Notes: generated by a model from the sequence alone, not told the origin. DNA of 64,000 bases from an uncultured Clostridia bacterium (GCA_946409545.1 CAMJWT010000001.1:71483-135482); one strand, 5' to 3'. Positions 696 through 40,406 are shown, numbered from the stretch's first letter. Numbers and translations: made by a program.

Positions 696-1247
696 ATGGA
701 TAATAAAAGAATAACAGAAGCAGAATTACAAGCGATAGATCCTACGTTTGTAGAAAGTAGTTTTATATCAAAAGTTGATAATATTTTTATAATGTTACAT
801 TCTTCTGTAATGTTAGGAAATTTAGAAAGAATTAAACATAAATTAAGTGATGAATTAATTAAAAGATATCAAAATTTAATTGATAATTTTAATGCAAATA
901 ATATAAGACAAATGTATGATGAATTAAATGTTAAATCAACAATGATAACTGGTATGTATGAAACAGAGAACGAATATATTATTGAGGTATTGTTAGTATC
1001 TAGATATATGGATTATTTAGTTAGAAAAGACAATAATCAATTTATTAGTGGTAATAATTCATATCGTACGGAAAAGAATAATTATCTAACTTTCTCTAAA
1101 AAGAAAAATGCAAAAGTAGAAGGTATGACAAGAAAATGTCCTGGTTGTAATGCAAATATTGATTCTAATAGCTCTGGTAAATGTCCATATTGTGGTACTT
1201 TCTATGATACTGTTAATTATGATTGGATTTTAAAGGATATAAGATGA
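696..1247 (+). CDS. Hypothetical protein with a putative Tim44/NTF2-like domain and a C-terminal CxxC...CxxC zinc ribbon. Paralog of 3997..4440.
   Basis: 183 aa. Ends 'CPGCNANIDSNSSGKCPYCGTFYD'. Shares 'MLxSxVMLGNLxRxKxKxSDxxxxxYQ..IDxFNxNNxRQMY...NYLTF' with the 3997 ORF. Confidence 0.4.
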   Translation: MDNKRITEAELQAIDPTFVESSFISKVDNIFIMLHSSVMLGNLERIKHKLSDELIKRYQNLIDNFNANNIRQMYDELNVKSTMITGMYETENEYIIEVLLVSRYMDYLVRKDNNQFISGNNSYRTEKNNYLTFSKKKNAKVEGMTRKCPGCNANIDSNSSGKCPYCGTFYDTVNYDWILKDIR

Positions 1248-2065
1248 AAAAAGATAATAAGAAAAGAATATTACTATTATCATTAATCTTAGGCTTATTT
1301 TTATTGTTTATTAATGTAAGAGCTGATTCAGGATATGATGTAGACTGGGGTGGAGGTGGCTCCGGCGGAGGCGGAGACATCAGTGGAATCTTTGATTTAA
1401 TCCTATTACTATTTAGAAATCCTATATTATTTATTATTGTTGTAATAATAATTGTTATTTTAGTGATTTATATGAATAAAAAAGATAAGACTTTACATAA
1501 TACAACTTCTATGGGATTAACTTTATTCACACATCGTCAAATTCCTTATGAACAAGTTAGTGCAATTCTAGGAAATATTGATATGAATGCCTTTATTAAT
1601 GATCGATTCAATGATTTTGTAGCGATTCAAAATGGATGGATGAATTTTAATCATGATTTGTTAAGAACTAAACTTACAGATGAATTATATAATCAATATG
1701 CTATTCAATTAGATACAATGCAAATTAAGAATCAACAAAATGTTATGAGTGACTTTAACTTATTCCAAGGTATGATTACAGGAATTATTCAAGAAGGAAA
1801 TAAAGTAACTTTAACAATGGAAATAATAACAGGATTCTTTGATTATTTAACCGAAAATGGACAAGTCGTAAGAGGAAAAAATGATCGAAAAGTAGTTGTT
1901 CATTATGAATTAACATTTGTATGCAATTTAGGAAGTAATGGCTTATGTCCAAACTGTGGAGCTAAGTTACCTGAAACGAATGTATGTGACTTCTGTCATT
2001 CTGTTGTTCCTAATGTTGGTACAGATTGGGTTATGTCTAAAAAAGAGACTTTAAAACAAAAATAA
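1244..2065 (+). CDS. Membrane protein with N-terminal TM helix, Gly-rich linker, Tim44-like domain and C-terminal zinc ribbon
   Basis: Start chosen at the ATG overlapping the upstream stop (ATGA), with AAGGA 8 nt upstream. Hydrophobic N-terminus, 'DWGGGGSGGGGD' linker, second TM, then 'CPNCGAKLPETNVCDFCHS'. The Gly-rich linker plus TM arrangement recalls bacterial Tim44-like (COG4395) proteins. Confidence 0.4.
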   Translation: MKKDNKKRILLLSLILGLFLLFINVRADSGYDVDWGGGGSGGGGDISGIFDLILLLFRNPILFIIVVIIIVILVIYMNKKDKTLHNTTSMGLTLFTHRQIPYEQVSAILGNIDMNAFINDRFNDFVAIQNGWMNFNHDLLRTKLTDELYNQYAIQLDTMQIKNQQNVMSDFNLFQGMITGIIQEGNKVTLTMEIITGFFDYLTENGQVVRGKNDRKVVVHYELTFVCNLGSNGLCPNCGAKLPETNVCDFCHSVVPNVGTDWVMSKKETLKQK

Positions 2066-2091
2066 CATTTACAATTCAGTTTTCTTCTAGT

Positions 2092-2757
2092 ATGATATTT
2101 CATATGAAGAAGAGACTGTTTTTTTTATTTATTTTTATAATAATATTAGTGTTTTTCCTTAATGGAATTATTGTAGGAACATCAAAAAATAGAATAATAA
2201 CTATTAATGAATTAAAGGATATCAAAGATATTGATGCTATTTTAGTATTAGGATGTAAAGTTAATCCAGGTGGTAATCCTTCTATGATGTTAGATAGAAG
2301 ATTAGAGAAGGGTATTGAAGTATATAAGACGATTGGCACAAAACTATTATTATCTGGTGATCACGGCCAGAAAGAATATGACGAAGTTAATACTATGAAA
2401 GAATATGTATTAAGTACGGATATCAATATTGATGATGTTTTCTTAGACCATGCTGGTTTTTCAACTTATGATAGTTTATATCGCGCTAAATATGTATTTG
2501 GTGTTAAAAAGATGGTTATTGTCACCCAAAGATATCACTTATTTAGGGCTCTTTATATTGCTAAATCCTTAGGAATAGAAGCTTATGGTATACCAGCCGA
2601 TAATATTCCTTATAGGTTTATAAATATTAAAAATGAAATAAGAGAAGTATTAGCAAGAGATAAAGATTTTTTCAAAGTAATAATTAAGCCAAAAAGCAAA
2701 TATTTAGGCGATAAAATTGATATTAAAGGAAGTGGAAGACTAACTTTTGATAAGTAG
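2092..2757 (+). CDS. SanA/YdcF (DUF218) family membrane protein
   Basis: N-terminal TM helix. Has 'DAILVLGCKV...PSMMLDRRLEKGIEVYK...LLLSGDHG...EYDEVNTMKEY', which fits DUF218/SanA. Start could also be the ATG at 2104; there is no clear SD for either. Confidence 0.5.
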   Translation: MIFHMKKRLFFLFIFIIILVFFLNGIIVGTSKNRIITINELKDIKDIDAILVLGCKVNPGGNPSMMLDRRLEKGIEVYKTIGTKLLLSGDHGQKEYDEVNTMKEYVLSTDINIDDVFLDHAGFSTYDSLYRAKYVFGVKKMVIVTQRYHLFRALYIAKSLGIEAYGIPADNIPYRFINIKNEIREVLARDKDFFKVIIKPKSKYLGDKIDIKGSGRLTFDK

Positions 2758-2816
2758 TCTTTTTTTTTATTTTTTTTTATGTTATAATAATTTTGATTTA
2801 AGATAGGAGGAAAAAA

Positions 2817-3941
2817 ATGGGATTAATTAAATCAGCAATTCAATCTATCAGTGGTGAACTTAGTGACCAATGGAAAGATTATATTACATGTGATGACATG
2901 GATATGAATACTTTAATGATTAAGAAGACAACTAAATCAGGTATCATATCTAAGAGTAGTGCAATTATGGTTGCGCCTGGCCAAATTGCCGTAATTTTTG
3001 ATTCAGGTAAAATTTTGGATGCAACAGCAGAAGAAGGAACTTATACTTTTGATGCTTCAACATCTCCATCATTCTTTGCAGGACAATTTGGAGCTGTATT
3101 TAAAGATTTATGGGCTCGTTTCACTTATAATGGAACAGTACCAAAACAACAAGCAGTATTCTATATTAATGCTAAAGAAATTTTGGATAATAAGTTTGGA
3201 ACACCTGCACCAGTTCCATTCCAAGATTATTCACATCCAATTCCAAATGAAATGACAGGAACTATTACACCTCTTCGTGTACAAGTTAAATGTTTCGGTA
3301 AATATACATATAAAATTACTGATCCAGCTGTATTCATGAGAGAATATGCAGGAACAGGTGATGTAGTTACTAAAGATGTTCTAAATGAACAAATGAGAAG
3401 TGAAGTTATTGCTTCATTCCAAAACGTATTAAATGAACTAGGAACAGAAGCTCATAAAGTTCCAGTTCTAGAACTTCCAAGTAGAACTGATGAAATCAAG
3501 ACTACAATGGATGAAAAAGTTTATGATGAACCAATTCGTAAACGTGGAATTCAAATTACAGGATTCGCTATTGAATCAGTAACATTAGATGATGAATCTA
3601 ATAAGAAGATTGATGAATACGAACACAATTCTAACGCTAGAATGCAACAAGGTCGTGTTCTTAACGTTATGGAAACTGCAGCAGGTAATGCTAATGGCGC
3701 AGGAGCAGGCTTTATGGGTCTAGGTATGATGAATATGGCTACTGGTGGAATGAACACTGCAGTTATGCAAAATGCTTTCACTCCACAACAACCAGCTGCT
3801 CAACCAGCAGCACCAGCTCCAGCAGCAGCACCAGGTGAAGCACCTGCAGCTCAAGGAGAAGTTGCTTTCTGTCCAAATTGTGGAACAAAATCAAGTGGCG
3901 GAAACTTCTGTACTAATTGCGGAACAAAATTACATGGTTAA
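2817..3941 (+). CDS. SPFH-like (COG4260/YdjI-type) protein with a C-terminal double zinc ribbon
   Basis: 374 aa. N-terminus 'MGLIKSAIQSISGELSDQWKDY', Ala/Pro/Gly-rich linker, then 'FCPNCGTKSSGGNFCTNCGTKLHG'. AGGAGG RBS. This architecture matches the family annotated as 'putative virion core protein'/YdjI, which is PspA-associated in B. subtilis. Confidence 0.5.
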   Translation: MGLIKSAIQSISGELSDQWKDYITCDDMDMNTLMIKKTTKSGIISKSSAIMVAPGQIAVIFDSGKILDATAEEGTYTFDASTSPSFFAGQFGAVFKDLWARFTYNGTVPKQQAVFYINAKEILDNKFGTPAPVPFQDYSHPIPNEMTGTITPLRVQVKCFGKYTYKITDPAVFMREYAGTGDVVTKDVLNEQMRSEVIASFQNVLNELGTEAHKVPVLELPSRTDEIKTTMDEKVYDEPIRKRGIQITGFAIESVTLDDESNKKIDEYEHNSNARMQQGRVLNVMETAAGNANGAGAGFMGLGMMNMATGGMNTAVMQNAFTPQQPAAQPAAPAPAAAPGEAPAAQGEVAFCPNCGTKSSGGNFCTNCGTKLHG

Positions 3942-3946
3942 TTAAT

Positions 3947-3972
3947 ATAGAAAGAGGTTTTCCTCTTTCTAT
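3947..3972 (+). terminator. rho-independent terminator
   Basis: Perfect 11-bp stem atagaaagagg/cctctttctat with a tttt loop. Confidence 0.5.
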
Positions 3973-3996
3973 ATCATTCTTTTAACGGGAGGATGT

Positions 3997-4440
3997 ATGA
4001 GCGTAGATGATTTAGTTAAAAAAGACTCTTCTTTTGGAATATCTAATTTTATTTCTGCAGCTAATAGCATGTATGTAATGTTACAATCTGCAGTCATGCT
4101 TGGCAACCTTTCACGCGTTAAAAGTAAAATTAGTGATAAAGTTTTACAAAAATATCAACATATTATTGACGAATTCAATAATAATAATCTTCGTCAAATG
4201 TATGAAGATATTAATATAAAAAAAACAGAAGTATTATCAATAACAAATAAAGATAATGATTATTACATTCAAGTATTAATCACTAGCTTAGCAAAAGATT
4301 ATGTTGTTGATAAAAAGAATTTAGAATATCGATATGGTGTTAATAATCAAAAGATTACGAAAAGTAATTATTTAACTTTTAGAAAAGATTATAATGATAT
4401 TAATAATCCATGGATTCTAGATGATATTTATACTAATTAA
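3997..4440 (+). CDS. Hypothetical protein, paralog of 696..1247 that lacks the zinc ribbon
   Basis: 147 aa. Contains 'MLQSAVMLGNLSRVKSKISDKVLQKYQHIIDEFNNNNLRQMYEDIN...NYLTFRK'. GGGAGG RBS. Confidence 0.4.
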   Translation: MSVDDLVKKDSSFGISNFISAANSMYVMLQSAVMLGNLSRVKSKISDKVLQKYQHIIDEFNNNNLRQMYEDINIKKTEVLSITNKDNDYYIQVLITSLAKDYVVDKKNLEYRYGVNNQKITKSNYLTFRKDYNDINNPWILDDIYTN

Positions 4441-7403: not shown

Positions 7404-7577
7404 ATGGATGAAAAGATTAATGAAGCTTCAGGAGAAATAAAAAAATATTTTGATAATTTACCTTTGATAGATGAAAAGGATATTAAAGACTTTAATTTTT
7501 TTGAGTCATGTTTGTATCTTGAAAAATTAAATTTATTAGATAGTTTAACAAGTAGAGAAGGTGAAGATAATGAGTGA
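7404..7577 (+). CDS. Small hypothetical protein (57 aa)
   Basis: AGGAGA RBS lies 6 nt upstream of the ATG. TGA stop overlaps the start of the next ORF. Confidence 0.3.
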   Translation: MDEKINEASGEIKKYFDNLPLIDEKDIKDFNFFESCLYLEKLNLLDSLTSREGEDNE

Positions 7578-9780
7578 AGTAGTTGCTATTAATTATCCCG
7601 CTTTTAATACAAGAGTTAAAACTAATAAAAGACAAGTTATTAAGCAGTTAGAGAAAAAAGTTGAAGAAGGAAAACTAGATATGTTAAAAGCATCATTAAG
7701 AGAGAAAAGTATTACTTTTAATGATGAAATAACTGATTATTATCAATTTGTTGATTCTCTTCAAAGTTTAACAGGACCAGATTTAATAATTGCCAATAAA
7801 TTAGTTAATAACATAAATCGTGAAGTTGATCGTATGATTTTATCATTAAAAGATGGTTCAACTAGTGCTTTTACTAAGTTTTTACAAACAGTTAATGATA
7901 AAGTATTAAGTCCTGTTGGAAATGTTGTTACGAATTCTCTTGCGATGAATACTGTTCTTAGTTTAATACCATCAATTCCTGTTAAAATGGGTGTTTCTAT
8001 TTTGTTAACAGGTATGTCTTTAACTAATATTTATAAGGTTGATAAGTATAAAATGGTTACCAATCGAACTTATGAATTAGATAAAGTATTACAAGAATTA
8101 GAAACAACAATTGATAAAGATGGTAATATTATCGATACTAGATTTAGTGAAAATGATCAAACCATTATTCGAAGTTTTTTAAAAACGAATAATGTTATAT
8201 ATGAAGATACAGGATATCTTTCTTTAAGAGAAGCGGTTTATAGTTTATCAGTTGAACAAAAAGAAGAATTATGTCGAAAACTTGATATGAATAAAGAGCA
8301 AGAGGAGCGAATTGAAAAATTAAACGATAATCTATTTACAAGAATAAGAAAAAAAGTTATAACTCCTATTGCTGTTGCTACAACCGGAGGAGTAGGTTTA
8401 GCAACGTCTATTAATTCTATTGATCCAACCCTTTTAGCAGCCCCTCTTAATGGTACACTAGTAGGAACAATTGTATCAAAATTAACCGAAAGTAAAGTAA
8501 TTGGATGGGTATCAGGAGCTATTACAGGATGCTTAAACTTTGTTGGTAAGTTTATACCTGCTATAAGTAGTTTAGTTAATAAAGTATCAGCTATAGAAAA
8601 CGTTGCAGTTCTTGCTGTAGCTGGAGCAGGTGTAGGTCTATTAGGTGTAATAGGTAAAGGCATCTATAATGCGATAAAGAATAGGAAGAATATCTTTAAT
8701 ACGCAAAAACTTCAAAAGAAATTGGCAGATAAAGATCAAGAACTATATGGAGAAAAAGATATTGAAGAAATAAGTAGAATGCGTGAGATTCTAAAAGAAA
8801 GATCTCATAAAGAAGAAACCTTTATCATTAGTATCGTATGTCAATATATGAATGAAATAGGTGTTGAATATGAAAAAGCGCCTCATAATTTACAAGAACT
8901 ACAAGAATTAATAAATGGTTTATCAAATAAAGAGAAGAGACAAATTAGAAAATTATTTGAATCATTAGAAGAATTTTTACATAGAGAACCAAATAAATTT
9001 AAAAGGTGTATGAAAAAAGCTGGTAAATTTATTAAAACGGTTGTAACTTTAGGTCTTGCTGGAATGAGTGTTACTAATATTCTTACAAGTGGTGGATTCT
9101 TTGCAATGATTAAAGAAAAGTTATTTGGTGTAGAACCGGTAGTAAAACCAGAATATTTATCGTTTGATGATTCAAAAGGAAGAGCAGCTTATGAAAGTGA
9201 ATATGGTGAGGTTATTAATGAAGTAGTAGAAACACCGATGGCAAACCCAGAACCTCAACCAGGACCTGCCCCAGTAACACCAACCCCAACGCCTACTCCA
9301 ACACCGACACCAGGTCCATCAGTAAATATGACACCAGAAACTCCAGTAACGACACCTAAACCAAAATATGTTTGTGGAAGATTACCAAAGTTAAATTATA
9401 ATTTACAGGATGTTTGCTTGGGAACAACTAACGTTGACTTATCTTCACTTCCTGATGATGAATTGTTATCATTAATTGTTAATTCACCTGATTATCGATA
9501 TACAGCACATATTTTAGAGGTAATGGATAAGGATACTTTCTTAAGATTTAAGACTTTAATTGAAAACAGTCCTAAAATAAATCGTAATGGTTGTTTAAGT
9601 TATCAATGGGTAAAAGATTGTTTGAATGCTCGAATAAATACTGAAAATCAAGTTATTAAAAATGCTATTGATGCTTATAATGCTAAAGTAAATTTAGATG
9701 ATATAACTAACAAGGTTGGTACAGGTATTGGTATAGCAGCCGCTATAACTGAAGAAGAAAAACAAGTTAAAACAAGATAA
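7570..9780 (+). CDS. Large hypothetical membrane protein with Gly-rich amphipathic/TM segments, a Pro-Thr linker and a Cys-containing C-terminal domain
   Basis: Roughly 736 aa from the ATG at 7570. Has several hydrophobic Gly-rich stretches ('AVATTGGVGLATSI', 'AVLAVAGAGVGLLGVIGKG'). Has a 'PTPTPTPTPTPGP' linker and a C-terminal domain carrying CGRLP...C...C...C. Confidence 0.5.
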   Translation: MSEVVAINYPAFNTRVKTNKRQVIKQLEKKVEEGKLDMLKASLREKSITFNDEITDYYQFVDSLQSLTGPDLIIANKLVNNINREVDRMILSLKDGSTSAFTKFLQTVNDKVLSPVGNVVTNSLAMNTVLSLIPSIPVKMGVSILLTGMSLTNIYKVDKYKMVTNRTYELDKVLQELETTIDKDGNIIDTRFSENDQTIIRSFLKTNNVIYEDTGYLSLREAVYSLSVEQKEELCRKLDMNKEQEERIEKLNDNLFTRIRKKVITPIAVATTGGVGLATSINSIDPTLLAAPLNGTLVGTIVSKLTESKVIGWVSGAITGCLNFVGKFIPAISSLVNKVSAIENVAVLAVAGAGVGLLGVIGKGIYNAIKNRKNIFNTQKLQKKLADKDQELYGEKDIEEISRMREILKERSHKEETFIISIVCQYMNEIGVEYEKAPHNLQELQELINGLSNKEKRQIRKLFESLEEFLHREPNKFKRCMKKAGKFIKTVVTLGLAGMSVTNILTSGGFFAMIKEKLFGVEPVVKPEYLSFDDSKGRAAYESEYGEVINEVVETPMANPEPQPGPAPVTPTPTPTPTPTPGPSVNMTPETPVTTPKPKYVCGRLPKLNYNLQDVCLGTTNVDLSSLPDDELLSLIVNSPDYRYTAHILEVMDKDTFLRFKTLIENSPKINRNGCLSYQWVKDCLNARINTENQVIKNAIDAYNAKVNLDDITNKVGTGIGIAAAITEEEKQVKTR

Positions 9781-16807: not shown

Positions 16808-17377
16808 TTAAAAACTAATTGATGCACTATTTGTTACATATGTTGCAAAATCAGCATCTGTTTTAATACTAAATGTTTGAGTAGATGTTGAAGGTGTATC
16901 ACCTAAATTATATCCAGTTACTCTTGTAGGATCTGCTGTATCACCATATACAGCAGTATATGTTCTAACTTCTTTTTTATAAGTTATTGTTGGATATCCT
17001 TCACCATCAACATTAGTTTCTGTTACAAAGTATTTAATTTGTTTAGTTGTATTATCATCTTCAATTTTACAAGGTGTATCAGATACTTTACTTGCTGCAT
17101 CTCTAGCCCAACCATCAAATTTTTGAGCTTTTGCAATCATATCATCATATTTTGCTTGCATTTTATCAAGTAAATCTGTTGATTTATCATTAATAGTAGT
17201 AATCATTGCAAGCCAACTATCTCTTGTTTCAGCGATAGATGAAAGATCACTATCATCGATTATTTTTTTATAAGTATCACTTATTGTTTTTATTGTTGTA
17301 TCAATATTTAATTTAGCTTCTTCAAGTGGCCTTTTAAAATTTGTTACAACTAATTCTTCATATGAAATTCTTGCCAT
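16808..17377 (-). CDS. Hypothetical protein with a helical N-terminal half and Thr/Tyr-rich C-terminal half
   Basis: 189 aa. Second gene of a minus-strand operon with 17387..18661 (10-nt spacing, GGAGG RBS). Confidence 0.45.
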   Translation of the reverse strand: MARISYEELVVTNFKRPLEEAKLNIDTTIKTISDTYKKIIDDSDLSSIAETRDSWLAMITTINDKSTDLLDKMQAKYDDMIAKAQKFDGWARDAASKVSDTPCKIEDDNTTKQIKYFVTETNVDGEGYPTITYKKEVRTYTAVYGDTADPTRVTGYNLGDTPSTSTQTFSIKTDADFATYVTNSASISF

Positions 17378-17386
17378 AACTACCTC

Positions 17387-18661
17387 CTAAAATTCTACCC
17401 ATTGTTCTTCAGGAGAACCTTCTTCAGAAATCTTAGCACTTGTAATATTTCCGTCTTCATCTGATTTATAATCATAAATATTATATTCTCCTTCAGGAAG
17501 AGCTTCTTCATCGGCTACACTATCACCGTTTTCTTGTTTTTTCTTAACGTAGATAGTTGCTCCTAAACCAACAACTAGAACACCTAGGACACCACCAAGA
17601 ATCTTATTCTTGCTGCTACTAATTGTAACTTTTGATCCGTTACCTAAGTCAACATTTTGTGGATTAGTAAATGTGTAACCATATTGTTCAAATGTTCCGC
17701 CATCAATATACTTACCATCTTTATAGATTTGAATCCATTGTTCAGGTTCGCCATCTTTACTAATTCTAATTGCTGTAACATTTGAATTAGAATCAGAAGC
17801 GATAGCGTAAACTTTATATTTACCTGGCTCTAATTGTCCAATTAAATTATTATCTTTATCATAAATAGGAATACCACCACTAGTACAATCGAATGATCCT
17901 ACTTGGTTAGTTTCATAATAAGAACCTACTGGCACACCATCTTGAACAACTCTAATCCATTGTTCAGGTTCTGTTCCATCAGGACTTACCCTAACAGCGA
18001 TAACATTTCCATTTCCATCTTTTAGTTCTTCATAAACTTTATATTGACTTGTTGTTGCTGTTCCCGTTGGATTACCGTTTTCATCAGTAATAATTGTTCC
18101 ATCTTTTGTTACTGTTAATGTTCCTAAACCATTATTTGTTGTTGGGTCAGTAGAATCTGTATTGAATTGATCAATTAAAGAATCAACTGTTGGTGTAACT
18201 GCTACAACTACTTCTTCGTCTTCAGTTGGATTTTCATCAGTTGGCTCTTCCTCGGTTGGAGTCTCATCTGTTGGTTCTTCTTCAGTAGGAGTTTCTGGAT
18301 CTGGTGTCCAATCATCTCCACCGCTCCAGTTGTTATTTCCACGTGGACGACGACTTTCTTCCTCTTCTTCTTCACCATCTTCATCGGTCATAATGATTCC
18401 TTCAAAGACTTGGGCCATTTCCATACCTATTTTGTTAATGCATCCAGCGATTGTTTGATCTGACTCATCTCCAGGTTCACCACACCATTCTTTAGCATCA
18501 AATTTATCACCAATTATTTCTTTAGGCTTAACTTCTACAATTTGTTCATCTGTATTATATTTGTTTATTCTCTCAAAAGCATCAGTTCTTTGTTTTAAAT
18601 TGGCATTTAATATTGTTAGTACATCTGTATCGATTGTTAACATTTCATCACCTATCCTCAT
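17387..18661 (-). CDS. Repeat protein lacking a signal peptide and anchored by one C-terminal TM helix, with an acidic cytoplasmic tail. Paralogous in architecture to 21684..24254.
   Basis: Has an 'EEEEEES...TEEEPTDETPTEEEPTDENPTEDEE' acidic linker. Has repeats 'NVIAVRVSPDGTEPEQWIRV' and 'NVTAIRISKDGEPEQWIQI'. Has the TM helix 'ILGGVLGVLVVGLGATIYV' followed by KKK. The tail 'EGEYNIYDYKSDEDGNITSAKISEEGSPEEQWVEF' repeats the motif. Confidence 0.5.
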   Translation of the reverse strand: MRIGDEMLTIDTDVLTILNANLKQRTDAFERINKYNTDEQIVEVKPKEIIGDKFDAKEWCGEPGDESDQTIAGCINKIGMEMAQVFEGIIMTDEDGEEEEEESRRPRGNNNWSGGDDWTPDPETPTEEEPTDETPTEEEPTDENPTEDEEVVVAVTPTVDSLIDQFNTDSTDPTTNNGLGTLTVTKDGTIITDENGNPTGTATTSQYKVYEELKDGNGNVIAVRVSPDGTEPEQWIRVVQDGVPVGSYYETNQVGSFDCTSGGIPIYDKDNNLIGQLEPGKYKVYAIASDSNSNVTAIRISKDGEPEQWIQIYKDGKYIDGGTFEQYGYTFTNPQNVDLGNGSKVTISSSKNKILGGVLGVLVVGLGATIYVKKKQENGDSVADEEALPEGEYNIYDYKSDEDGNITSAKISEEGSPEEQWVEF

Positions 18662-18775
18662 TATAATTATAAAGTATTATTTGATTGAATGCAATTTTAA
18701 AACAATTATTACAAGAGTTATTTTGTTTATTTTACATTTTTCGTCGATATATCGTGTAAATTTAAAGTATAAAGT

Positions 18776-18804
18776 TTGCATTTATAAAATCTAGATGATA
18801 GAAT
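18776..18804 (+). promoter_or_regulatory. Putative sigma-A promoter for the WXG100 pair
   Basis: TTGCAT, 17-nt spacer, then TAGAAT. Confidence 0.4.
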
Positions 18805-18827
18805 GAAAATAGAGAGGAGTGTATAAT

Positions 18828-19139
18828 ATGGGCATGATTTCAGTTAATCCTGAAAAATTAAATGAATTATCAGAATATTATAGCAATAAATTTGATACAA
18901 CATATAGAGATGTAACAGAAAGATTCGGAACAACTATTGGAAAGTTGTCAACTACTTGGGAAGGTGAGGAGGCAACTACTGCTAATGCAGCATATGAAAA
19001 AATTAAAGCTTCCCTACAAAGAATAGAAGAAAGATCTAACGATATTAAACGTATTGTTGCTGGAAAAGCAACTGGATTCCAAGAAACTGTTGATAATACT
19101 AAGAGAAGTTTCAATCAAATGGATGATGTAAAATTTTAA
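18828..19139 (+). CDS. WXG100 (ESAT-6-like) family protein
   Basis: About 103 aa from the ATG at 18828 (AGGAG 9 nt upstream). Central 'TTWEGEEATTANAAYEKI' W-x-G motif between two predicted helices. Confidence 0.55.
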   Translation: MGMISVNPEKLNELSEYYSNKFDTTYRDVTERFGTTIGKLSTTWEGEEATTANAAYEKIKASLQRIEERSNDIKRIVAGKATGFQETVDNTKRSFNQMDDVKF

Positions 19140-19160
19140 TATAAGGAGTAATTAGTAATT

Positions 19161-19433
19161 ATGGATAATAGAAAGATTAATGTAGAAGAAGCTAAACAAC
19201 AAATTACTGAATTAAAGAATGTTAGAGAAGAGTTAGAAAAAGTTGTTAGTGAACTTGAAACTCAATTCTTAGCAGAATTTTCTAATGCTTATGATAGCCA
19301 AAGAGCTCAAGAATTAAAAGCTAACATTGATGCAATGAAAGTAGAAATTGATAATATTAATAAAGAAACAAATACAATTACACAAATTAGTGAAGAATAT
19401 GTAAGAAGTTCTGAAGCTACTGATGTACAATAA
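19161..19433 (+). CDS. Small helical WXG100-like/EsxB-like partner protein
   Basis: 90 aa, coiled-coil-like. AAGGAG RBS. Lies immediately downstream of the WXG100 gene. Confidence 0.45.
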   Translation: MDNRKINVEEAKQQITELKNVREELEKVVSELETQFLAEFSNAYDSQRAQELKANIDAMKVEIDNINKETNTITQISEEYVRSSEATDVQ

Positions 19434-19458
19434 AAAAAGCTACGGCTTTTTTTATTTT

Positions 19459-19485
19459 CTCTTATTTTAGCACTCTCTATTGACA
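19459..19485 (+). promoter_or_regulatory. CIRCE (HrcA operator) inverted repeat upstream of clpB
   Basis: TTAGCACTC-N9-AAGTGCTAA versus the consensus TTAGCACTC-N9-GAGTGCTAA, one mismatch. Overlaps the -35 of the promoter. Confidence 0.6.
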
Positions 19486-19499
19486 AGTGCTAAAATAGT
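19472..19499 (+). promoter_or_regulatory. Putative sigma-A promoter of clpB
   Basis: TTGACA, 16-nt spacer, then TATAAT. Confidence 0.5.
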
Positions 19500-19527
19500 G
19501 CTATAATCTTTTTAAAGAGGTGAGATT

Positions 19528-21618
19528 ATGATGCAAAATGAAGAGAATGAAAATGTTCTTGAAAAATATGGACGTGATGTAACTAAAGCATCCAAGGATG
19601 GTAAAATTGATCCTGTAATTGGTCGTGATGATGAAATCCGTAGTATTACAAGAATATTATCAAGAAAAACAAAAAATAATCCAGTATTAATAGGAGAACC
19701 TGGTGTTGGTAAAACTGCTATTGTTGAAGGTCTTGCCAATCGTATAGTTAAAGGAGATGTTCCTAATAGTTTAAAGAATAAGACAATTTGGGAACTCGAT
19801 TTAGCAAGTTTAGTAGCAGGTGCCAAATATCGTGGTGAATTTGAGGAAAGATTAAAAAATGTATTAAATGAAATCAAGAAGAGTGAAGGTAATATTATCA
19901 TGTTTATTGATGAAATACATATGATAGTAGGTAATTCTGGCGATGGAGCTATGGATACAGGTAATATTTTAAAACCTATGCTAGCTCGTGGTGAAATTCA
20001 TGTAATTGGTGCAACAACTTTAAATGAATATCGTAAATTCATTGAAAAAGATGGAGCACTAGAACGTCGTTTTCAAAAAATTAAAGTTAGTGAACCAACT
20101 GTAGAAGATACAATAACAATTCTTCGTGGCTTAAAACAAAGATTTGAAATCCATCATGGTGTTAATATTACGGATAAAGCTCTAGTTTCGGCCGCTACTT
20201 TATCTAATCGATATATAACTGATCGTTATCTTCCTGATAAAGCCATTGATTTAATTGATGAAGCTTGTGCAACAATTCGTGTTCAAATGGATTCTGTTCC
20301 TATTGAACTTGATACTTTAACAAGAAAGATATTAAGTTTAGAAATTGAAAGACAAGCAATAAAAAAAGAAAAAGATGAGTTTAGTAAAAAGAGACTTCAA
20401 CAAATTGAAGATGAACTTTATAACTTAAAACAAGATGAAAATAAACTTAAAGAAGCTTGGGAAAAAGAAAAAGGTGTTAATGATAAAATTAAAGCCAAAA
20501 AACAAGAACTAGAAAAAGCTAAATTTACACTTGAAACAGCAGAAAACAATTATGATTTAGAAACAGCAGCTAGATACCGTCATGGGGAAATACCTAGAAT
20601 TGAAAAAGAACTTGCTGAACTAAATAATTTATCAGAAAATAGAATTCTTAGTGATACCGTTAATGAAGAAGATATTGCAGAAGTTATATCTAAGTGGACA
20701 AATATTCCTATTTCTAAATTAATGAGTGGTGAAAGAGAAAAACTTCTTCATTTATATGATAATATGAAAAAATACATTAAAGGACAAGACGAAGCTTTAA
20801 AACTAGTTAGTGAATCTATTTTAAAATCACGTGCTGGTATTAAAGATCCAAATCGTCCTATTGGTTCCTTTATTTTCTTAGGTCCAACTGGTGTTGGTAA
20901 AACAGAAGTTGCTAAAACATTAGCTCTTGAACTATTTGATGATAAAAGTCATATGGTAAGAATTGATATGTCTGAATATATGGAAAAATTTAGTGTATCA
21001 AGACTAATTGGTTCCCCTCCAGGTTATGTTGGCTATGAAGAAGGTGGACAACTTACTGAAGCGGTTAGAAGAAATCCTTATAGTATTGTTTTATTTGATG
21101 AAATTGAAAAAGCTGATACGGAAGTATTAAACTTATTACTACAAATTCTTGATGACGGTCGTATAACTGATTCTAATGGACGTACTGTAGACTTTAAAAA
21201 TACCATAATTATTATGACAAGTAATATTGGTAGTGAAGAAGCTTTATCTGGTGATAAACAAAAAGTCTTAGAAGAATTAAGACATTATTTAAGACCAGAG
21301 TTTATTAATCGTGTTGATGAAATAATTATTTTTAATCCATTATCTAAAGAAGTTATCTATGAAATTCTTGATAAAATAATTGAAGAAATTGAAGAAAGAC
21401 TAAAAGATAAGAATTTAAAAATCAAGTTAACAGAAGAAGCAAGAAACTATTTAGTCGATATTGGTTATGATGTTAATTATGGAGCTAGACCATTAAAAAG
21501 AGCAGTTTCTCGTAGTATCGAGACGATTCTTGCTGAAAAAATCATTAATGGCGAAGTTAAATATGGAGATACTGTTACTTTTGATTATAATGGAGAATTA
21601 TTTGTAAAGAACCTTTAG
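19528..21618 (+). CDS. clpB: Chaperone ClpB (short form lacking the N-terminal domain)
   Basis: Two AAA+ modules ('GEPGVGKT', 'GPTGVGKT') and a long coiled-coil M-domain between NBD1 motifs. 696 aa, which implies no N-domain, as in Mollicutes ClpB. Confidence 0.9.
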
Positions 21619-21633
21619 AAGGTTCTTTTTTTG
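21607..21633 (+). terminator. rho-independent terminator after clpB
   Basis: agaacc-(tttagaa)-ggttct followed by T7. Confidence 0.5.
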
Positions 21634-21683
21634 TGTTAAAAAAAGATATAATATGCTATACTCTATAATAGAGAGGTGTTGTA

Positions 21684-24254
21684 ATGAGTGATACTAGTAA
21701 TTCTTATGAAATAAAGGATTTGGATGTTAAATCGGTAAGTACAGCAATTAATAATTGTTTAGTTTTACTCTCTGATGAAGAATTGGACTCCATGAGTAGT
21801 TTTTTGTGTTCAGAATCTAATGATATTAAACCGGATTTTCTTAAAATTACACCTTCTGATATAGAAAGCACTTTAATTATGGGTAGAATTTTGCAAGACT
21901 CCAAAAGTTCTAGAAAAACACCAGTGGATTTTAATCAAGTTTTTTATAAAGAAGCTAAAACAACAATGAGTAATGGTTTTTCAAGTTTAAGATCAGTTAT
22001 TGAAAAAATAAATAATTCGATTATTACTTGGAATAATATTTTAAATGAGAATACAGAAATAGATAAAGAATTAGAAGAAATACAAGCTCCAAAAGATGAT
22101 TTACCACCTACTGAATCTAAAATAACTGTTGAAAATGATCTTGTAGGTGTAACTGATACTGGTTCCAAAGTTAACATACCAGCTGGTGAATATGACTATG
22201 GTGAAATAAAGACGGTTAATGGTAAAACCTATATGAAGATAGTAATTAATGGTGTTGAATATTGGGTTTTATTTAAAGATGGAGTTATTGTTTCTTATAT
22301 TGCTTCTTTAATTGATACCAATGTTTATGTTGGTGCTGCTATTGTTGGATTAACTCTTCTTGGAACAGCAATTAATATTCCACCAGGTGATTATAAAATT
22401 CATGATGCTAAAGATATAGATGGTAAAACTTATATTCAAATAGAAGTTAATGGAGAAACCGTTTGGGTATTATTCGAAGATGGTAAAATTGTTCCTTACG
22501 CTGATTCTTCAAATATAACACCTGTAGTAATTGTTACATCAACAATTGTTGGTATAACTGAAAATGGTGAAAAAGTTACAATACCATCAGGAACATACGA
22601 AATCTTAGGTACAAAAACAATTGATGGCAAAACTTATGTCAAAATTAGTATAAATGGTGTTGAATATTGGGTATTATATGAAAATGGCGTAATTGTTCCT
22701 TATAAAGAAACATCAGGTGAAGAAAGAGAGCCATATAATGGAGAATTCAATGATATTTCAATAACAATTTATGTTGATGGTAATCCTATTAATCTAAAGA
22801 GTGGTGAATATACAATCATTTCTACTTTTGAGAGTAATGGACAAACATATGCCGTTATTCTTTATAAAGGAAAATACTATATTGTTTTATTAGATGAAAA
22901 TGGAAATATTGTTGATGGTTCTGATGCTACTCTTGTTAAAGGTGTTTATACAATATTAAATACAGATATTACAATTAATATTGATGGAGAAAAAATCAAT
23001 ATCAAAGCTGGTAAGTATCAAATTATCGCTATTATGGAAATTAATGGTAAACGTTATGGACTTATCTTAATAGATGGTAAATATTATTGGGTATTAATTG
23101 ATGAAAATAATAATATAATTCCTAATAGTGAAGGAGATCCTGTAATAAAACCATCTGTCATTGTTACAGAACCAATTACGATAATAGTAAATGGTGAACC
23201 AGTTACGATTACTCCTGGATCATATGTAATATTAAATATAAAAACAATTGATGGAAAACGTTATGTTCTATTATTGATTAATGGAGTTTATTATTGGGTA
23301 TTAGTAGATGATAATAATAATATTGTTCCAAATGGTGAAGGATTTAAAGCCAATTCAATCGTAATTGTAATAGATAATGATTTAGTAATTATTGTAGATG
23401 GTGAACCAGTTAAAATTACTCCAGGAACGTATACAATCTTAGATGTTCAAATAATTAATGGTAGAAAATATGGTTTAATCTTAATTAATGGAAAATATTA
23501 CTGGGTACCATTAGATGAAAATGATAATATTGTTCCAAATGGTGAAGCAATACCATTTGAAAAAATGACATTTGATTGGGATAGAGAATTAATCTTTATC
23601 ATTAATGGTGAAAAAATTATTGTAAAACCAGGTACATATACAATTCTTCGCGTTATTCATTATGATGATGGAAGTTATGCATATTATGTATTAATAGATG
23701 GTAAATATTATTGGTTCCATTTTGATAAAGATGGTAATTTCAAATATGCATATATTGAAATACCAGGAAATGGTGTTTATACAATTGATACAGAATTAGA
23801 AATAATTGATGAATTAGGTCATGTTGTTGGTATGACTGATCAAACAACATATCATATATATTCTATTATTTATGATGCTGATGGTAATATTATTGCTATT
23901 AGAATCTCACCACCTGGAGAACCTGAAAGATGGATTTATGTAAGAAGTAAAGGAAAAACGGATGGAACATATATTCCAACAGAAGAAGATCCTAGTAAGT
24001 CTAGTGATTCTGTTAAATATTCACACTTTAAAGACCATAAATTAGTATTAGGATGTCTTTTAGGACTTGCATCAGTTATTGGTGGTGCAATAGTTTACAA
24101 AAAGAAGAAAAACTCCAAAGAAAAATTAGAAGAGTATGAGTTAGAAGATGGAGAATATCCTGTATTTGAAGAAGATTTTGATGATGATGGTTCCGTTTCT
24201 CTTCGAATAAATAATGATTCTTCTGAAGATGATTATTGGATGGAGGTTAGATAG
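21684..24254 (+). CDS. Large repeat protein without a signal peptide, with eight tandem ~57-aa beta-rich repeats, a C-terminal TM anchor and an acidic tail
   Basis: 856 aa. Repeats look like 'VNIPAGEY..GKTYMKIVINGVEYWVLFKDGVIV'. Last repeat is 'NIIAIRISPPGEPERWIYV'. The TM helix 'LVLGCLLGLASVIGGAIVY' is followed by KKKK. The tail is 'DGEYPVFEEDFDDDGSVSLRINNDSSEDDYWMEV'. Confidence 0.55.
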   Translation: MSDTSNSYEIKDLDVKSVSTAINNCLVLLSDEELDSMSSFLCSESNDIKPDFLKITPSDIESTLIMGRILQDSKSSRKTPVDFNQVFYKEAKTTMSNGFSSLRSVIEKINNSIITWNNILNENTEIDKELEEIQAPKDDLPPTESKITVENDLVGVTDTGSKVNIPAGEYDYGEIKTVNGKTYMKIVINGVEYWVLFKDGVIVSYIASLIDTNVYVGAAIVGLTLLGTAINIPPGDYKIHDAKDIDGKTYIQIEVNGETVWVLFEDGKIVPYADSSNITPVVIVTSTIVGITENGEKVTIPSGTYEILGTKTIDGKTYVKISINGVEYWVLYENGVIVPYKETSGEEREPYNGEFNDISITIYVDGNPINLKSGEYTIISTFESNGQTYAVILYKGKYYIVLLDENGNIVDGSDATLVKGVYTILNTDITINIDGEKINIKAGKYQIIAIMEINGKRYGLILIDGKYYWVLIDENNNIIPNSEGDPVIKPSVIVTEPITIIVNGEPVTITPGSYVILNIKTIDGKRYVLLLINGVYYWVLVDDNNNIVPNGEGFKANSIVIVIDNDLVIIVDGEPVKITPGTYTILDVQIINGRKYGLILINGKYYWVPLDENDNIVPNGEAIPFEKMTFDWDRELIFIINGEKIIVKPGTYTILRVIHYDDGSYAYYVLIDGKYYWFHFDKDGNFKYAYIEIPGNGVYTIDTELEIIDELGHVVGMTDQTTYHIYSIIYDADGNIIAIRISPPGEPERWIYVRSKGKTDGTYIPTEEDPSKSSDSVKYSHFKDHKLVLGCLLGLASVIGGAIVYKKKKNSKEKLEEYELEDGEYPVFEEDFDDDGSVSLRINNDSSEDDYWMEVR
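22155..23950 (+). repeat. Coding tandem repeat array (8 units of ~165-175 bp) inside 21684..24254
   Basis: Protein-level periodicity '(V/I)x(I/V)(P/K)xGxYxI...(I/N)(D/N)GKxYxxIxINGxxYWVLxDxNxNIVPN'. DNA copies are diverged. Confidence 0.45.
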
Positions 24255-24255
24255 T

Positions 24256-24930
24256 ATGAGTACAATGTCAAGATATACGAATAAAAATGGACCTTTTGCT
24301 CCACCTACAGATAGTGGTCATACTGTTCAAGGTATATTAAATAGTTCGTATTTTAAAAATTTAAGTAAAACTTATGATAAATTATTTAACATTTGTCAAA
24401 AAATTAAAGGCATTCAAAATAGTTTAATTGATGCATCAGGATCTGATATTAATAAAGTTAATGATGATTTAGAGAAAGTTTATAAAGCTTTTAGTGACTT
24501 ACAAGATAAAATTGATAGTCGTGGTAGTATTATGCTTGATAATGCTATTAGATATGATAATGTATATGAAGCTAAACGAAGTTTAATAGGTACAACGATT
24601 AATCATACCGAAACGATTATAAAAAAAGGTAGTGTATATGTTGCTCTAATGTATCGCTACTGGGATACGGTTCGTGAACAAACAGATTTTGTTGAAGGTA
24701 TTGAATATGGAACAGATGGATACATATATTTAAAAGTAAAAAGAACTGTAAGGACAGTTGATCGTCAAAACAAGAATTTATGGGTGTTTGCTAATTTTAA
24801 TGATAACTATGATATGGAAGAAACATCTGACCCTATAATAACTACTTATAATTATGGTCTTAAGGTATTCTTTGATGGAACTTATGAATCTCTTGATAAT
24901 CTAACATTTTTATCTGCAGCACCTAAATAA
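24256..24930 (+). CDS. Hypothetical protein (224 aa)
   Basis: ATG with a GGAGG RBS, overlapping the end of the upstream gene. No recognisable motif. Confidence 0.45.
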   Translation: MSTMSRYTNKNGPFAPPTDSGHTVQGILNSSYFKNLSKTYDKLFNICQKIKGIQNSLIDASGSDINKVNDDLEKVYKAFSDLQDKIDSRGSIMLDNAIRYDNVYEAKRSLIGTTINHTETIIKKGSVYVALMYRYWDTVREQTDFVEGIEYGTDGYIYLKVKRTVRTVDRQNKNLWVFANFNDNYDMEETSDPIITTYNYGLKVFFDGTYESLDNLTFLSAAPK

Positions 24931-25016
24931 AGTGTAAATATAAAAATGAATTAAAGTGATTAATTGATATAAAAAAATGATTATGATATTATAAAAATAT
25001 AAGGAGGATATAAAAC

Positions 25017-25307
25017 ATGGTTAAAATTTCTTATAATTCTAGTAATATGGATAGTGTTATAACTTCATTAAGAACTAAAAAAGCATCTTTTGATGAAAGT
25101 GTTTCTACTGTTACAACAGCTATTCAAACTATTGAAAATGGAAATAACTGGAGTGGAACTGATTATGAGTTAGCAAAGTTAGACTTTGATGCTATTCTTG
25201 CCAATATGACTAAGATTGGAAATAATATAGCAAGTATTGAAGCTGCTTTAACTACAGTACAAACTAATATGGCTGCCAATAAATATGGAGGTAACGGTAA
25301 TGGATAA
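25017..25307 (+). CDS. WXG100 family protein
   Basis: 96 aa. 'NGNNWSGTDYELAKLDFDAI' W-x-G motif between helices. AAGGAGG RBS. Confidence 0.5.
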   Translation: MVKISYNSSNMDSVITSLRTKKASFDESVSTVTTAIQTIENGNNWSGTDYELAKLDFDAILANMTKIGNNIASIEAALTTVQTNMAANKYGGNGNG

Positions 25308-25653
25308 TAATATGACTGCTGCTGCTAATGCAGCTATAAGAGATGTTACATTAGAGATAGATACTGATGCTGTATTAGAGCAACTAGCTATTATGAAAAA
25401 TGTTCTTGGTGAACAAGAAAGAGCTTTATTACAAGATTTTGGTGAAACTTTATCAACAGCTTGGAAAAGTGGTAATGCTACTTTAGTAGCTGGTAAGATT
25501 GAAGAAATCAATACTTCATTTACTACAATGGCAGGAATTATTGATAAACTTGTAGATAAAGTTAATTCATATGTTGCTAATGTTCAAAAAGCAGAAGAAG
25601 TTTCTTTCAATAATGGCGAAGAATCTAGTGCACCTGCTCAAACAGAACAATAA
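25300..25653 (+). CDS. WXG100-like partner protein
   Basis: About 117 aa from the ATG at 25300 (GGAGG 8 nt upstream). Helical, with 'TAWKSGNATL'. Confidence 0.4.
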   Translation: MDNNMTAAANAAIRDVTLEIDTDAVLEQLAIMKNVLGEQERALLQDFGETLSTAWKSGNATLVAGKIEEINTSFTTMAGIIDKLVDKVNSYVANVQKAEEVSFNNGEESSAPAQTEQ

Positions 25654-25690
25654 AAAAAACAAACGTTTATTCGTTTGTTTTTTATTTTTT
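25652..25690. terminator. bidirectional terminator
   Basis: A8, then stem aaacaaacg/cgtttgttt with a tttatt loop, then a T-run. Lies between convergent genes. Confidence 0.55.
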
Positions 25691-26368
25691 TACATATTGT
25701 CTTGGATTTGTTTCTTCAGTAAATAAAGTTGATATTTCATCGATTTCTTCTTTAGAGTAATCTTCACCTAAATTTTGTTCAATATAATTATCACGAATTT
25801 CATGTAATCTTGTTAAAAGACCTTGTAAGTTTTGAAGATGATCTTCTTTTTCATTACATTCATTTAATAAGTTTTTATTATTTTCTAAATCGTTTTCAGC
25901 TTCATGTAAATCTTTAATTGTTCTTTTAGCACTATATTGTTTATCTCCGTATAAATCATTATATGGTTTAAATCTTTCGTTTTCTTGAATCTTTTTATCA
26001 CATACCATACTTGAAGTATGATAAGCTACATAATCAGTTGCCCAAATAAGTATTGGTAAGAATGTAGTAAATGTAATATTACCTGCAATTAGAGATGCAA
26101 TGATTAATCCTATTGTTATAACGGCAACTAAGAGTGCTGGAAGAATATATAAGAATTTTTTCATCTTATTATATTTAGGATATCTCTTTTGAATAGTTTC
26201 ATCTTCCATTAATGTTTCTAATAATTTAATTAATTGTTTCTTATCATTAATTGTTTCTTGAATTTTATTTTTATCAAGTGATTTTAATTCTTCATTTAGT
26301 TTATTAATAGCTGTTTGAACTTTATTTGTTTCATTCTTTAATTTTGTCATAAAAACTCCTTTTGCCAT
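25682..26368 (-). CDS. Hypothetical membrane protein with coiled-coil flanks
   Basis: 228 aa with two central TM helices ('FLYILPALLVAVITIGLIIASLIAG', 'FTTFLPILIWATDYVAY'). Confidence 0.45.
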   Translation of the reverse strand: MAKGVFMTKLKNETNKVQTAINKLNEELKSLDKNKIQETINDKKQLIKLLETLMEDETIQKRYPKYNKMKKFLYILPALLVAVITIGLIIASLIAGNITFTTFLPILIWATDYVAYHTSSMVCDKKIQENERFKPYNDLYGDKQYSAKRTIKDLHEAENDLENNKNLLNECNEKEDHLQNLQGLLTRLHEIRDNYIEQNLGEDYSKEEIDEISTLFTEETNPRQYVKK

Positions 26369-39535: not shown

Positions 39536-40405
39536 GTGAATTATACTAGTATTTTTTTGGATTCCATTAAACCAAATTTAGAGGGTATTGATGAAATTAA
39601 AGAAAGACTTGATAATTCGATGGATGAATATAAAAATCTAGATGAATTAGTCTTTTTTATTGGAGATGATTCTAAAAAGATTATTGATTTTCCTAATCAG
39701 GATTTAGTTAATAATTATTTATCGTTAATTTCCAAAGATGAAAAAGAATATCAAGCAATAAAGTACTTAGTTTCAACAAACGATAAAAAGATGCGTTTTT
39801 TACCTCAATATGTTGATTCTGTTGTTAATCTTGAAAGTTTAGCAATAGGTATTAGAAGTATAAAAAATAACTTATCAAGAGAGATTGATGATTTAAGTTC
39901 AACATATTATGAAAAATGGTTAAATAAAAAATATTATGATATCTTCTCTTCTAATAATATTTATTTATCTGATCCAAGTGAGTTTTCTATATATTTAAAA
40001 AAGTTAGAAATTCCAGATGATTTAAAAGTTAATATATTAGGAGAAGCTGTTAAGTGTAATAATATCTATTATCAAAAATATTATGATAATACAGATGATT
40101 ATATTAAGTTTATTAATGATAATCGAATATTCTTATTAAACAAGTTTAAGAGTTTAGAAGATAGTTTAAGTAAATATGTTAATCTAGATTGTAGTTTAGA
40201 AGACATATTAAGTTATAGTAATCGATATGATTTAGAAAACTTATTACTTGCTAAAAAGATATGGATTGTTAATAAAGTTAATGATAATTATTTAAATAAT
40301 GATATGAATGGATTAAATGATTTAATAAAAGATTTTAATTTCATTAATACATTAGAGAACAAGAATAAAGAAGAAATAGAAAGAATAATAAAGGAAGGGC
40401 ATTAA
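39536..40405 (+). CDS. Hypothetical protein (first gene of a coupled three-gene operon)
   Basis: 289 aa. Putative GTG start, so the start is uncertain. No TM helix. Confidence 0.4.
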   Translation: MNYTSIFLDSIKPNLEGIDEIKERLDNSMDEYKNLDELVFFIGDDSKKIIDFPNQDLVNNYLSLISKDEKEYQAIKYLVSTNDKKMRFLPQYVDSVVNLESLAIGIRSIKNNLSREIDDLSSTYYEKWLNKKYYDIFSSNNIYLSDPSEFSIYLKKLEIPDDLKVNILGEAVKCNNIYYQKYYDNTDDYIKFINDNRIFLLNKFKSLEDSLSKYVNLDCSLEDILSYSNRYDLENLLLAKKIWIVNKVNDNYLNNDMNGLNDLIKDFNFINTLENKNKEEIERIIKEGH

Positions 40406-40406
40406 A

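Follow-up and report, generated by a model that had tools for sequence, protein, structure and literature searches.

What is encoded where two pairs of small proteins resembling the WXG100 substrates of type VII secretion each stand beside a large protein that lacks a signal peptide? Both loci lie at positions 16,808 to 25,653 of a 64,000-nucleotide (nt) stretch of DNA from an uncultured Clostridia bacterium (GCA_946409545.1 CAMJWT010000001.1:71483-135482), and this whole stretch of 64 kb is hereafter called the window. An earlier note, made from the sequence alone, had described each locus as a WXG100-type pair next to a large, C-terminally anchored repeat protein, and every open reading frame (ORF) that it named was found at its coordinates in our ORF listing. 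Both loci are real, but the unit is larger than the note had it: a fourth gene had been overlooked, as had the SH3b nature of the repeats. The unit is a four-gene cassette consisting of Esx1, Esx2, Big, and Mid, and the window holds two copies. Module 1 comprises Mid-1 (A) and Big-1 (B) on the minus strand and Esx1-1 (C) and Esx2-1 (D) on the plus strand, and module 2 comprises Big-2 (E), Mid-2 (F), Esx1-2 (G), and Esx2-2 (H), all on the plus strand. We tentatively regard these modules, at a little less than even confidence, as type-VII-style cargo cassettes that would deliver a wall-binding, C-terminally anchored surface protein.

The first small gene of each module belongs to the WXG100 family. 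Esx1-1 (C; 18828..19139, plus strand; 103 amino acids, aa) carries a W-E-G motif at 18957-18965 and Esx1-2 (G; 25017..25307, plus strand; 96 aa) a W-S-G motif at 25149-25157. Against PF06013 (WXG100), C scored 31.9 bits (E 1.7e-7), above the Pfam curated cut-off of 27.3; G, with 22.4 bits (E 1.5e-4), is below this cut-off and is a WXG100 protein at the family level. The stricter TIGR03930 cut-off was reached by none of the small proteins. In an alignment of C, G, and nine orthologues, the W-x-G motif is invariant in all 11 members, and ten of the 11 matched WXG100 individually (E<=0.01). The best PDB matches of the Esx1 profile were Staphylococcus aureus EsxA (E 1.8e-6), SAG1039 of Streptococcus agalactiae (group B streptococcus, GBS), and Bacillus anthracis EsxB, all over the full length with E 2e-6 to 7e-5; this profile evidence implies that Esx1 has an EsxA/EsxB-type hairpin fold (2vs0, 3gvm, 4j7j; E about 1e-6). 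The identification of C and G as WXG100 proteins in the earlier note is thus upheld.

The second small proteins, Esx2-1 (D; 19161..19433, plus strand; 90 aa; degenerate motif Y-D-S at 19290-19298) and Esx2-2 (H; 25300..25653, plus strand; 117 aa; W-K-S at 25462-25470), gave no WXG100 match singly and are placed through their family only. Having been noted simply as small and helical, they turned out to represent a second WXG100-like family, in which 7 of the 11 members matched WXG100 (E<=0.01; best E 2.3e-6). The motif of this family is W-x-S, replaced by Y-x-S in D, and hhalign aligned the Esx2 with the Esx1 profile at a probability of 78% (E 1.7e-5) with W-x-S and W-x-G in register. Against PDB, the Esx2 profile reached 12fa at E 8e-4, amid coiled-coil noise. 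No pairwise similarity was found for C/G and D/H, and these are joined only via orthologues and profiles; C and G both match one 89-aa orthologue in L007 (related loci are numbered with the prefix L), with 40% and 26% identity, respectively. The members of the two families range from 89 to 117 aa. On the basis of the Esx1 and Esx2 family profiles together with the Pfam matches, we conclude that each module encodes an EsxA/EsxB-like pair. The Lap families, with which the note had proposed a comparison, were not recovered: C, D, G, and H matched neither DUF3130 nor DUF3958 (Pfam, E<=1; for D, among the best 25 of 35 matches).

Big-1 (B; 17387..18661, minus strand; 424 aa) consists, all on the minus strand, of an N-terminal domain with the order helix, KPKEI turn, helix (18362-18661), an acidic P/T/E-rich linker (18131-18361), two SH3b-like repeats (17657-18130), a transmembrane (TM) helix (17546-17602; residues 354-372), and KKK with an acidic tail that contains a further repeat motif and ends in WVEF (17390-17545). 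Big-2 (E; 21684..24254, plus strand; 856 aa) has, on the plus strand, an N-terminal helical domain with a KPDFL turn motif (21684-22058), eight E-type repeats of ~68 aa (22179-23783), one B-type SH3b-like repeat (23784-23978), a TM helix (24042-24098; residues 787-805), and KKKK with an acidic tail ending in YWMEVR (24099-24251). The last ~190 aa are common to the two proteins (BLASTP E 2e-13). Each has one strongly hydrophobic segment of 19 residues, followed by KKK or KKKK and a tail of 51-52 aa with a net charge of -11 in B and -10 in E, in which one further copy of the motif forms the extreme C-terminus; this arrangement of single helix, lysines, and motif-bearing acidic tail had been described correctly. 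A second TM helix in E (residues 214-232) was rejected, as this is a beta segment between repeats, found again in each of them. Neither B nor E has an N-terminal hydrophobic stretch. Furthermore, both are maximal ORFs, starting at the first start codon after a stop, so that no upstream extension, and hence no signal peptide, is possible; an upstream start that might supply one was rejected on this ground, and the claim that the large proteins lack a signal peptide holds.

Tandem 'AIRISPPGEPERWI' repeats had been assigned to both large proteins. B has two such repeats, ending in A(V/I)R(V/I)S-x-DG-x-EPEQWI, but E has only one, its other eight being of a different, possibly related type. The AlphaFold2 model of B, built with 19 homologues, is confident only over the repeat region (predicted local distance difference test, pLDDT, about 80). 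In fold searches, the repeats of B matched the binding domains of LysPBC5 and the phage 2638A endolysin as well as the lysins Ly7917, PlyGRCS, and PlyPy, and, further down the list, the TagH C-terminal domain and the SlpA teichoic-acid-binding domain. Independently, Foldseek placed the SlpA lipoteichoic-acid-binding domain first (probability 0.99), and Pfam LytB_SH3 was matched at E 7e-7 by two of 19 members, not by B and E themselves. Given these matches to lysin binding domains, to SlpA, and to LytB_SH3, the B-type repeats are SH3b-like as modelled; structure prediction of the repeats, which the earlier note had proposed, thus led to the fold of extracellular cell-wall-binding domains. Because this fold is shared with extracellular SH3b domains, it is plausible that the Big repeats lie outside the cell and, accordingly, that they get there by a non-Sec route. 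Short partial matches of the Y-D-x-x-G-N repeat motif to Imm64, DUF3659, RHS, FlgD_ig, and DUF1508 were not taken as domain assignments.

The breadth of the Big family was determined by an exhaustive HMMER search of 1.84 billion representatives with the repeat region of B as the query (E<=1e-3). The family is rare, with 50 clusters. When a dozen repeat proteins unrelated to the family, along with a few fragments, are set aside, the matches have one architecture throughout, shared by 37 of the 37 recognisable members. After an N-terminal domain, composed of a helix, a K-P-x-E/D-F/I/L turn with an invariant proline at about residue 45, and another helix, come a linker of low complexity, repeats of the E and B types, and, 46-89 residues before the end, a TM helix; the tail is acidic (mean 59 aa, mean net charge -8.3) and ends in ..EYWVEV. 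Conservation is highest in the helix, its Lys flank, and the tail. An N-terminal hydrophobic segment or signal peptide occurs in none of the 37 members, and the repeat is never found behind a Sec signal peptide. The other possibility raised in the earlier note, that of a new family, is borne out inasmuch as these proteins form a coherent, previously unannotated, C-terminally anchored family.

The gene missed previously encodes Mid-1 (A; 16808..17377, minus strand; 189 aa) in module 1 and its divergent paralogue Mid-2 (F; 24256..24930, plus strand; 224 aa) in module 2; the range given in the note took in A, which was left uninterpreted there. Mid-1 lies 9 nt downstream of B, one base separates the stop codon of E from the start of F, and G and H overlap by 8 nt; such overlaps and abutments suggest co-translation of the partners. 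Mid orthologues directly follow every Big gene, and the position of F is kept in L001-L005. Although A and F have no pairwise similarity, they form one family once orthologues are aligned. In the AlphaFold2 model of A (mean pLDDT 86.6), a long helical hairpin (residues 6-42 and 46-95) precedes a C-terminal antiparallel beta domain (104-170). Mid-1 has no Pfam match, no TM segment was found in Mid, and the fold search gave no solved fold at E<0.01; faint matches to VirB8/NTF2-like and levivirus-coat folds, none of which reached this level, were disregarded. Over its whole length, the hairpin of A could be aligned weakly to the WXG100 profile (probability 42%, E 2.7e-4, 72 columns). In L011 (11877-13148, plus strand), a second Mid paralogue of 423 aa lies right after the first and has the hairpin and the beta domain followed by a Ser/Thr-rich C-terminal extension of ~200 aa.

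The same four families co-occur in every related locus. The Esx1-Esx2 pair is divergent from the Big-Mid pair or, as in module 2, downstream of it. Cassettes were found in about seven chromosomal neighbourhoods (ftsX/clpB, clpB/rpsF, PAP2/dNK, clpP/whiA, PRK-clpP/GNAT, NMT1/arcA, and tsaD), surrounded by core-genome synteny (ftsX-clpB-rpsF) and not situated in variable islands. In one lineage, two Big-Mid pairs in tandem come after a single Esx pair (L010 5416-11832; L014 7634-14362; L015 5205-11933). Two small ORFs of 111 and 158 aa lie between the Big-Mid pairs of L014 and L015, a layout reminiscent of polymorphic effector arrays. No relative of the cassette was found in viral contigs, and a phage origin was rejected for this reason.

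What would such a cassette do? Several observations lead us to the type-VII-style reading: both small families are WXG100 by identity, the cassette is conserved across about seven contexts, B and E as well as the 37 family members have no signal peptide and, on average, the more basic flank on the C-side of the helix, Mid is confidently modelled as a hairpin plus a beta domain, and partner genes overlap or abut. Moreover, across all known type VII variants, candidate substrates nearly always have one or two small genes related to WXG100 beside them (PMC11217815), the products of which bind the helical targeting domain of the substrate (PMC11217815; PMC10801868), and LXG-Lap-Lap trimers constitute the export signal (PMC10801868). 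In our cassettes, Esx1 (C/G) and Esx2 (D/H) probably form a helical-hairpin heterodimer. The hairpin proteins and the N-terminal domain of Big may assemble into a helical targeting bundle, which an EssC-type ATPase encoded elsewhere would recognise, and the N-terminal bulk of Big would then be exported without Sec. The C-terminal helix would be retained in the membrane, with the Lys-rich flank and the acidic tail in the cytoplasm, while the SH3b-like repeats would attach to the wall of the producing cell and the linker together with the N-terminal domain would extend to the outside. Such a protein would act as a tether between membrane and wall or serve for surface display.

A number of observations weigh against this proposal. 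One concerns the machinery. As the earlier note had stated for the ATPase, no EssC/FtsK- or SpoIIIE-type ATPase was seen in the window, nor were EssB, EsaA, or YukD, and the unannotated large proteins of the window have no relevant Pfam match. An EssC-sized ORF (at least 1000 aa) was found neither within 10 kb of the cassette in 31 related loci, where the largest ORFs encode UvrA (946-952 aa), nor in the 4 and 15 related loci that genome and metagenome scans gave; the DNA of the lineage covered in about seven contexts amounts to ~200 kb, a small fraction of the genome. Another concerns the presumed targeting domain. The N-terminal domains of B, E, and 19 family members gave no match to Pfam LXG (PF04740), the Big N-terminal profile had no sequence match in PDB, and its hhalign probability against the WXG100 profile was 1.3%, so that we rejected its assignment as a WXG100 hairpin. 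In the AlphaFold2 model of B this domain appears as two low-confidence helices. No homology between the N-terminal domains of B and E was detected by hhalign, the alignments being shallow, and the one hint of their kinship is the K-P-x-[ED]-[FIL] turn motif that the family sequences share. The export motif YxxxD/E or FxxxD (as defined in PMC10801868), expected after the second helix, shows no conservation in the alignments of either Esx1 or Esx2; FNQMD occurs in C and is not kept in the orthologues. Among the PDB matches of the Esx1 profile was also HP0062. This is a WXG100-like protein of Helicobacter pylori, an organism that is not known to have type VII secretion. Furthermore, no type VII system is known that leaves its substrate anchored by a C-terminal TM helix, and PMC11217815 describes no such case. 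Finally, lysines stand on both sides of the helix in B and E, and the beta motif also occurs on both sides, which no simple topology explains.

A rival reading has the opposite topology. Big could be a tail-anchored protein with its N-terminal bulk and repeats in the cytoplasm, its helix inserted by YidC/Sec, and its acidic tail of ~50 aa outside; the WXG100-like proteins and Mid would be cytoplasmic partners, and no secretion would be involved. A TM helix placed 46-89 aa before the C-terminus in a protein with no signal peptide is what textbooks describe for this class, and lysines before the helix, as well as a tail that bears a wall-binding-type motif, would also fit, as would the failure to find a secretion ATPase in the window and the 31 loci. 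The strongly acidic tail (mean net charge -8.3) would fit as well, as acidic tails can be translocated with the aid of the membrane potential. However, the flank on the C-side is twice as basic as that on the N-side, which disfavours crossing of the membrane: over the 37 family proteins, K+R in the 13-aa flanks averages 4.9 on the C-side and 2.5 on the N-side. The earlier note had argued from the KKK alone, by the positive-inside rule, that the bulk of the protein is extracellular. Family-wide the direction of the bias stands; because lysines flank the helix on both sides, the argument is weaker, and the charge bias favours a cytoplasmic tail less decisively than the KKK implied. In addition, the structures nearest to the repeats are SH3b domains that bind the wall outside the cell, linkers rich in P/T/E or N/S/G are characteristic of regions that span the wall, and nothing in this reading would explain why the linkage to two WXG100 genes is strict. 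We consider the tail-anchored topology unlikely.

Quite unlikely, in our judgement, is a fully secreted type VII effector directed against other cells, the repeats of which would bind the target wall while its Gly-rich helix inserts into the target membrane, with Mid as a chaperone or immunity protein. Type VIIb toxins do include membrane-depolarising proteins with Gly-zipper helices, e.g. TelE and TspA; the number and type of repeats vary in Big, tandem Big-Mid pairs stand behind one Esx pair in L010, L014, and L015, and the WXG100-type accessory genes are similar to Lap genes. However, the helix, Lys flank, and tail are the most conserved parts and not a variable toxin end, the Gly pattern forms no conserved zipper, and Pfam recognised no toxin domain. 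The conserved core-genome synteny and the viral contigs without a cassette also speak against an effector. Usual immunity proteins to membrane toxins have TM segments, which Mid lacks. No more probable is that the lineage is without an EssC-type ATPase and that either the cassette takes another, undescribed route to the surface, possibly via its own hairpin proteins, or the WXG100-like proteins have a non-secretory role. The ~200 kb without an ATPase near the cassette in about seven contexts, a lineage known from metagenome assemblies only, and the example of HP0062 would fit this reading. Against it, type VII substrate clusters are often distant from the machinery genes, and the fraction of the genome covered is small. 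Every described type VII variant, moreover, combines a WXG100 protein with an EssC/EccC ATPase (PMC11217815).

The cargo cassettes that we propose are closest in organisation to the LXG-Lap cassettes of the type VIIb system and to the mycobacterial pe-ppe-esx-esx cassettes, and the cassette is a member of neither LXG nor PE/PPE. In LXG loci with Lap1/Lap2 or Lap3/Lap4 (PMC10801868, PMC11217815), as here, two small WXG100-like genes adjoin a large protein that has a helical N-terminal domain and no signal peptide, and such cassettes are often sited away from the secretion genes. However, the N-terminal domain of Big is not LXG, the small proteins are canonical WXG100 (PF06013) and not DUF3130/DUF3958, and the small genes are divergent from or downstream of the large gene instead of upstream. 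The C-terminal part of Big consists of SH3b repeats, TM anchor, and tail without a toxin domain, and the hairpin-plus-beta protein Mid takes the place of a recognisable immunity gene. The pe-ppe-esx-esx cassettes of the type VIIa system are four-gene units that have been duplicated away from ESX-5, occur several times per genome, and depend on a distant secretion locus; they have two larger hairpin-type proteins followed by an Esx pair, as in E-F-G-H. In contrast, our families show no sequence relationship to PE/PPE (PPE was matched only by C, at E 0.064), come from a different phylum, and include in Big a membrane-anchored protein with SH3b repeats.

By fold, the Big repeats are closest to the SH3b domains of lysostaphin, of the phage endolysins PlySb, LysPBC5, and 2638A, and of Lactobacillus SlpA, although the identity is only 10-16% and most Big members have no Pfam SH3 match. 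Unlike in lysins, the repeats are borne on a TM anchor and a helical N-terminal domain, not on an enzyme, and their wall binding is putative. Large beta-rich extracellular regions held by a C-terminal helix are also found in type VII contexts in EsaA and TsdI, the latter having Ig-like repeats and a C-terminal TM helix (PMC11217815); however, TsdI has a Sec signal peptide and sits inside the secretion locus, whereas Big has no signal peptide and its own Esx pair. Big was also compared with LPXTG sortase substrates: B and E have neither a signal peptide nor LPXTG, ~50 residues extend beyond the basic flank, and Gram_pos_anchor was matched only at E 0.37. Membership in the LXG, Lap (DUF3130/DUF3958), PE/PPE, and LPXTG groups was thus rejected, being unsupported by family matches.

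From the gene layout, the divergent intergenic region 18662..18827 between the B-A and C-D units is presumed to be the site of both promoters; its -35/-10 matches are weak and no more than those of shuffled sequence. A bidirectional terminator-like hairpin (25654..25683) closes the E-F-G-H unit. Exactly between both cassettes lies clpB (19528-21618, plus strand). Its promoter (19480-19507) is of the sigma-70 type, agrees with the consensus at 12/12 positions, and has an extended -10; a terminator lies at 21606-21628. Because of its own promoter and terminator we regard clpB as a neighbour, and its membership in the module was rejected on these grounds and because cassettes exist without it. 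This clpB is devoid of the N-terminal domain, matching positions 148-850 of 853 of the ClpB profile. In three relatives, clpP instead of clpB adjoins the cassette (L009 2219-2800, plus strand; L011 8038-8619; L012 7517-8098). About 1 kb from the cassette in L009 is a gene of the SpoVK/CbbX/EccA-type AAA+ group (525-2114, minus strand), which scored 188 bits with the EccA model, below the cut-off. On the other side of module 2, the gene at 25682-26368 (minus strand) encodes a coiled-coil protein of 228 aa, at the centre of which two hydrophobic helices form a hairpin; this two-TM protein keeps its place next to rpsF also in L007, which has no module 2, and was therefore rejected as a module member.

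The window as a whole (G+C 28%, genetic code 11) is bacterial core chromosome in character, with uvrA, lgt, whiA, gap, ftsEX, clpB, rpsF-ssb-rpsR, dnaB, rpoBC, pgk, and tpi; no tRNA genes were found in it. Near-identical DNA is present in ruminant gut metagenome assemblies (GCA_016291895.1 and others), and more distant relatives are labelled as uncultured Bacilli or Erysipelotrichaceae metagenome-assembled genomes. A LysM-G5-M23 peptidase and lgt (both by Pfam), together with an ORF at 53554-54822 that is FemAB-like by eye, indicate a walled cell. Elsewhere in the window, the uracil-DNA glycosylase gene (35681-36373) stands between the genes of two paralogues of 225 and 222 aa (34995-35672 and 36413-37081, plus strand; 28% identity, E 5e-28). 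Neither paralogue matched anything in Pfam or PDB, and their N-terminal helix precedes an 'SWWS/LWSS' motif. A 739-aa protein (7561-9780, plus strand), in which several hydrophobic segments rich in Gly occur along with stretches of coiled coil and a (TP)n linker, belongs to no Pfam family and is kept beside lgt in the relatives L007, L008, and L029. Adjacent proteins of 289 and 715 aa (39536-42554, plus strand), apparently helical by sequence and without a Pfam match, are also encoded, the second with a long acidic E/P/V-rich centre. A cluster at 696-4440 (plus strand) contains a Tim44-like-domain membrane protein (1223-2065), an SPFH/Band-7 protein with C-terminal zinc ribbons (2817-3941), and two small proteins (696-1247 and 3997-4440) that appear paralogous by eye.

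In Bacillota, the type VII cargo known so far is made up of small Esx proteins and of toxins that are soluble or form pores. If the proposed delivery of Big is correct, a conserved core-genome cassette would add a structural, cell-envelope role to this cargo. One possibility, which we consider somewhat unlikely, is that a type VII or type-VII-like pathway serves here in the biogenesis of a membrane protein: the N-terminal ~370-790 residues would be threaded outward and the C-terminal helix released sideways into the membrane, giving a wall-bound, anchored protein with a cytoplasmic tail that mirrors the extracellular repeat; if the lineage is without EssC, the route would be an undescribed one via the cassette's own WXG100-type hairpins. 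Such a pathway would raise the question of whether a type VII channel can release a TM segment laterally. The analysis also defines three previously unannotated families, namely the N-terminal domain of Big, marked by the K-P-x-E-F turn, the Mid protein with its hairpin and beta domain, and the SH3b-like repeat, of which one copy follows the membrane helix, all of which are confined to an uncultured gut and rumen lineage of Bacilli.

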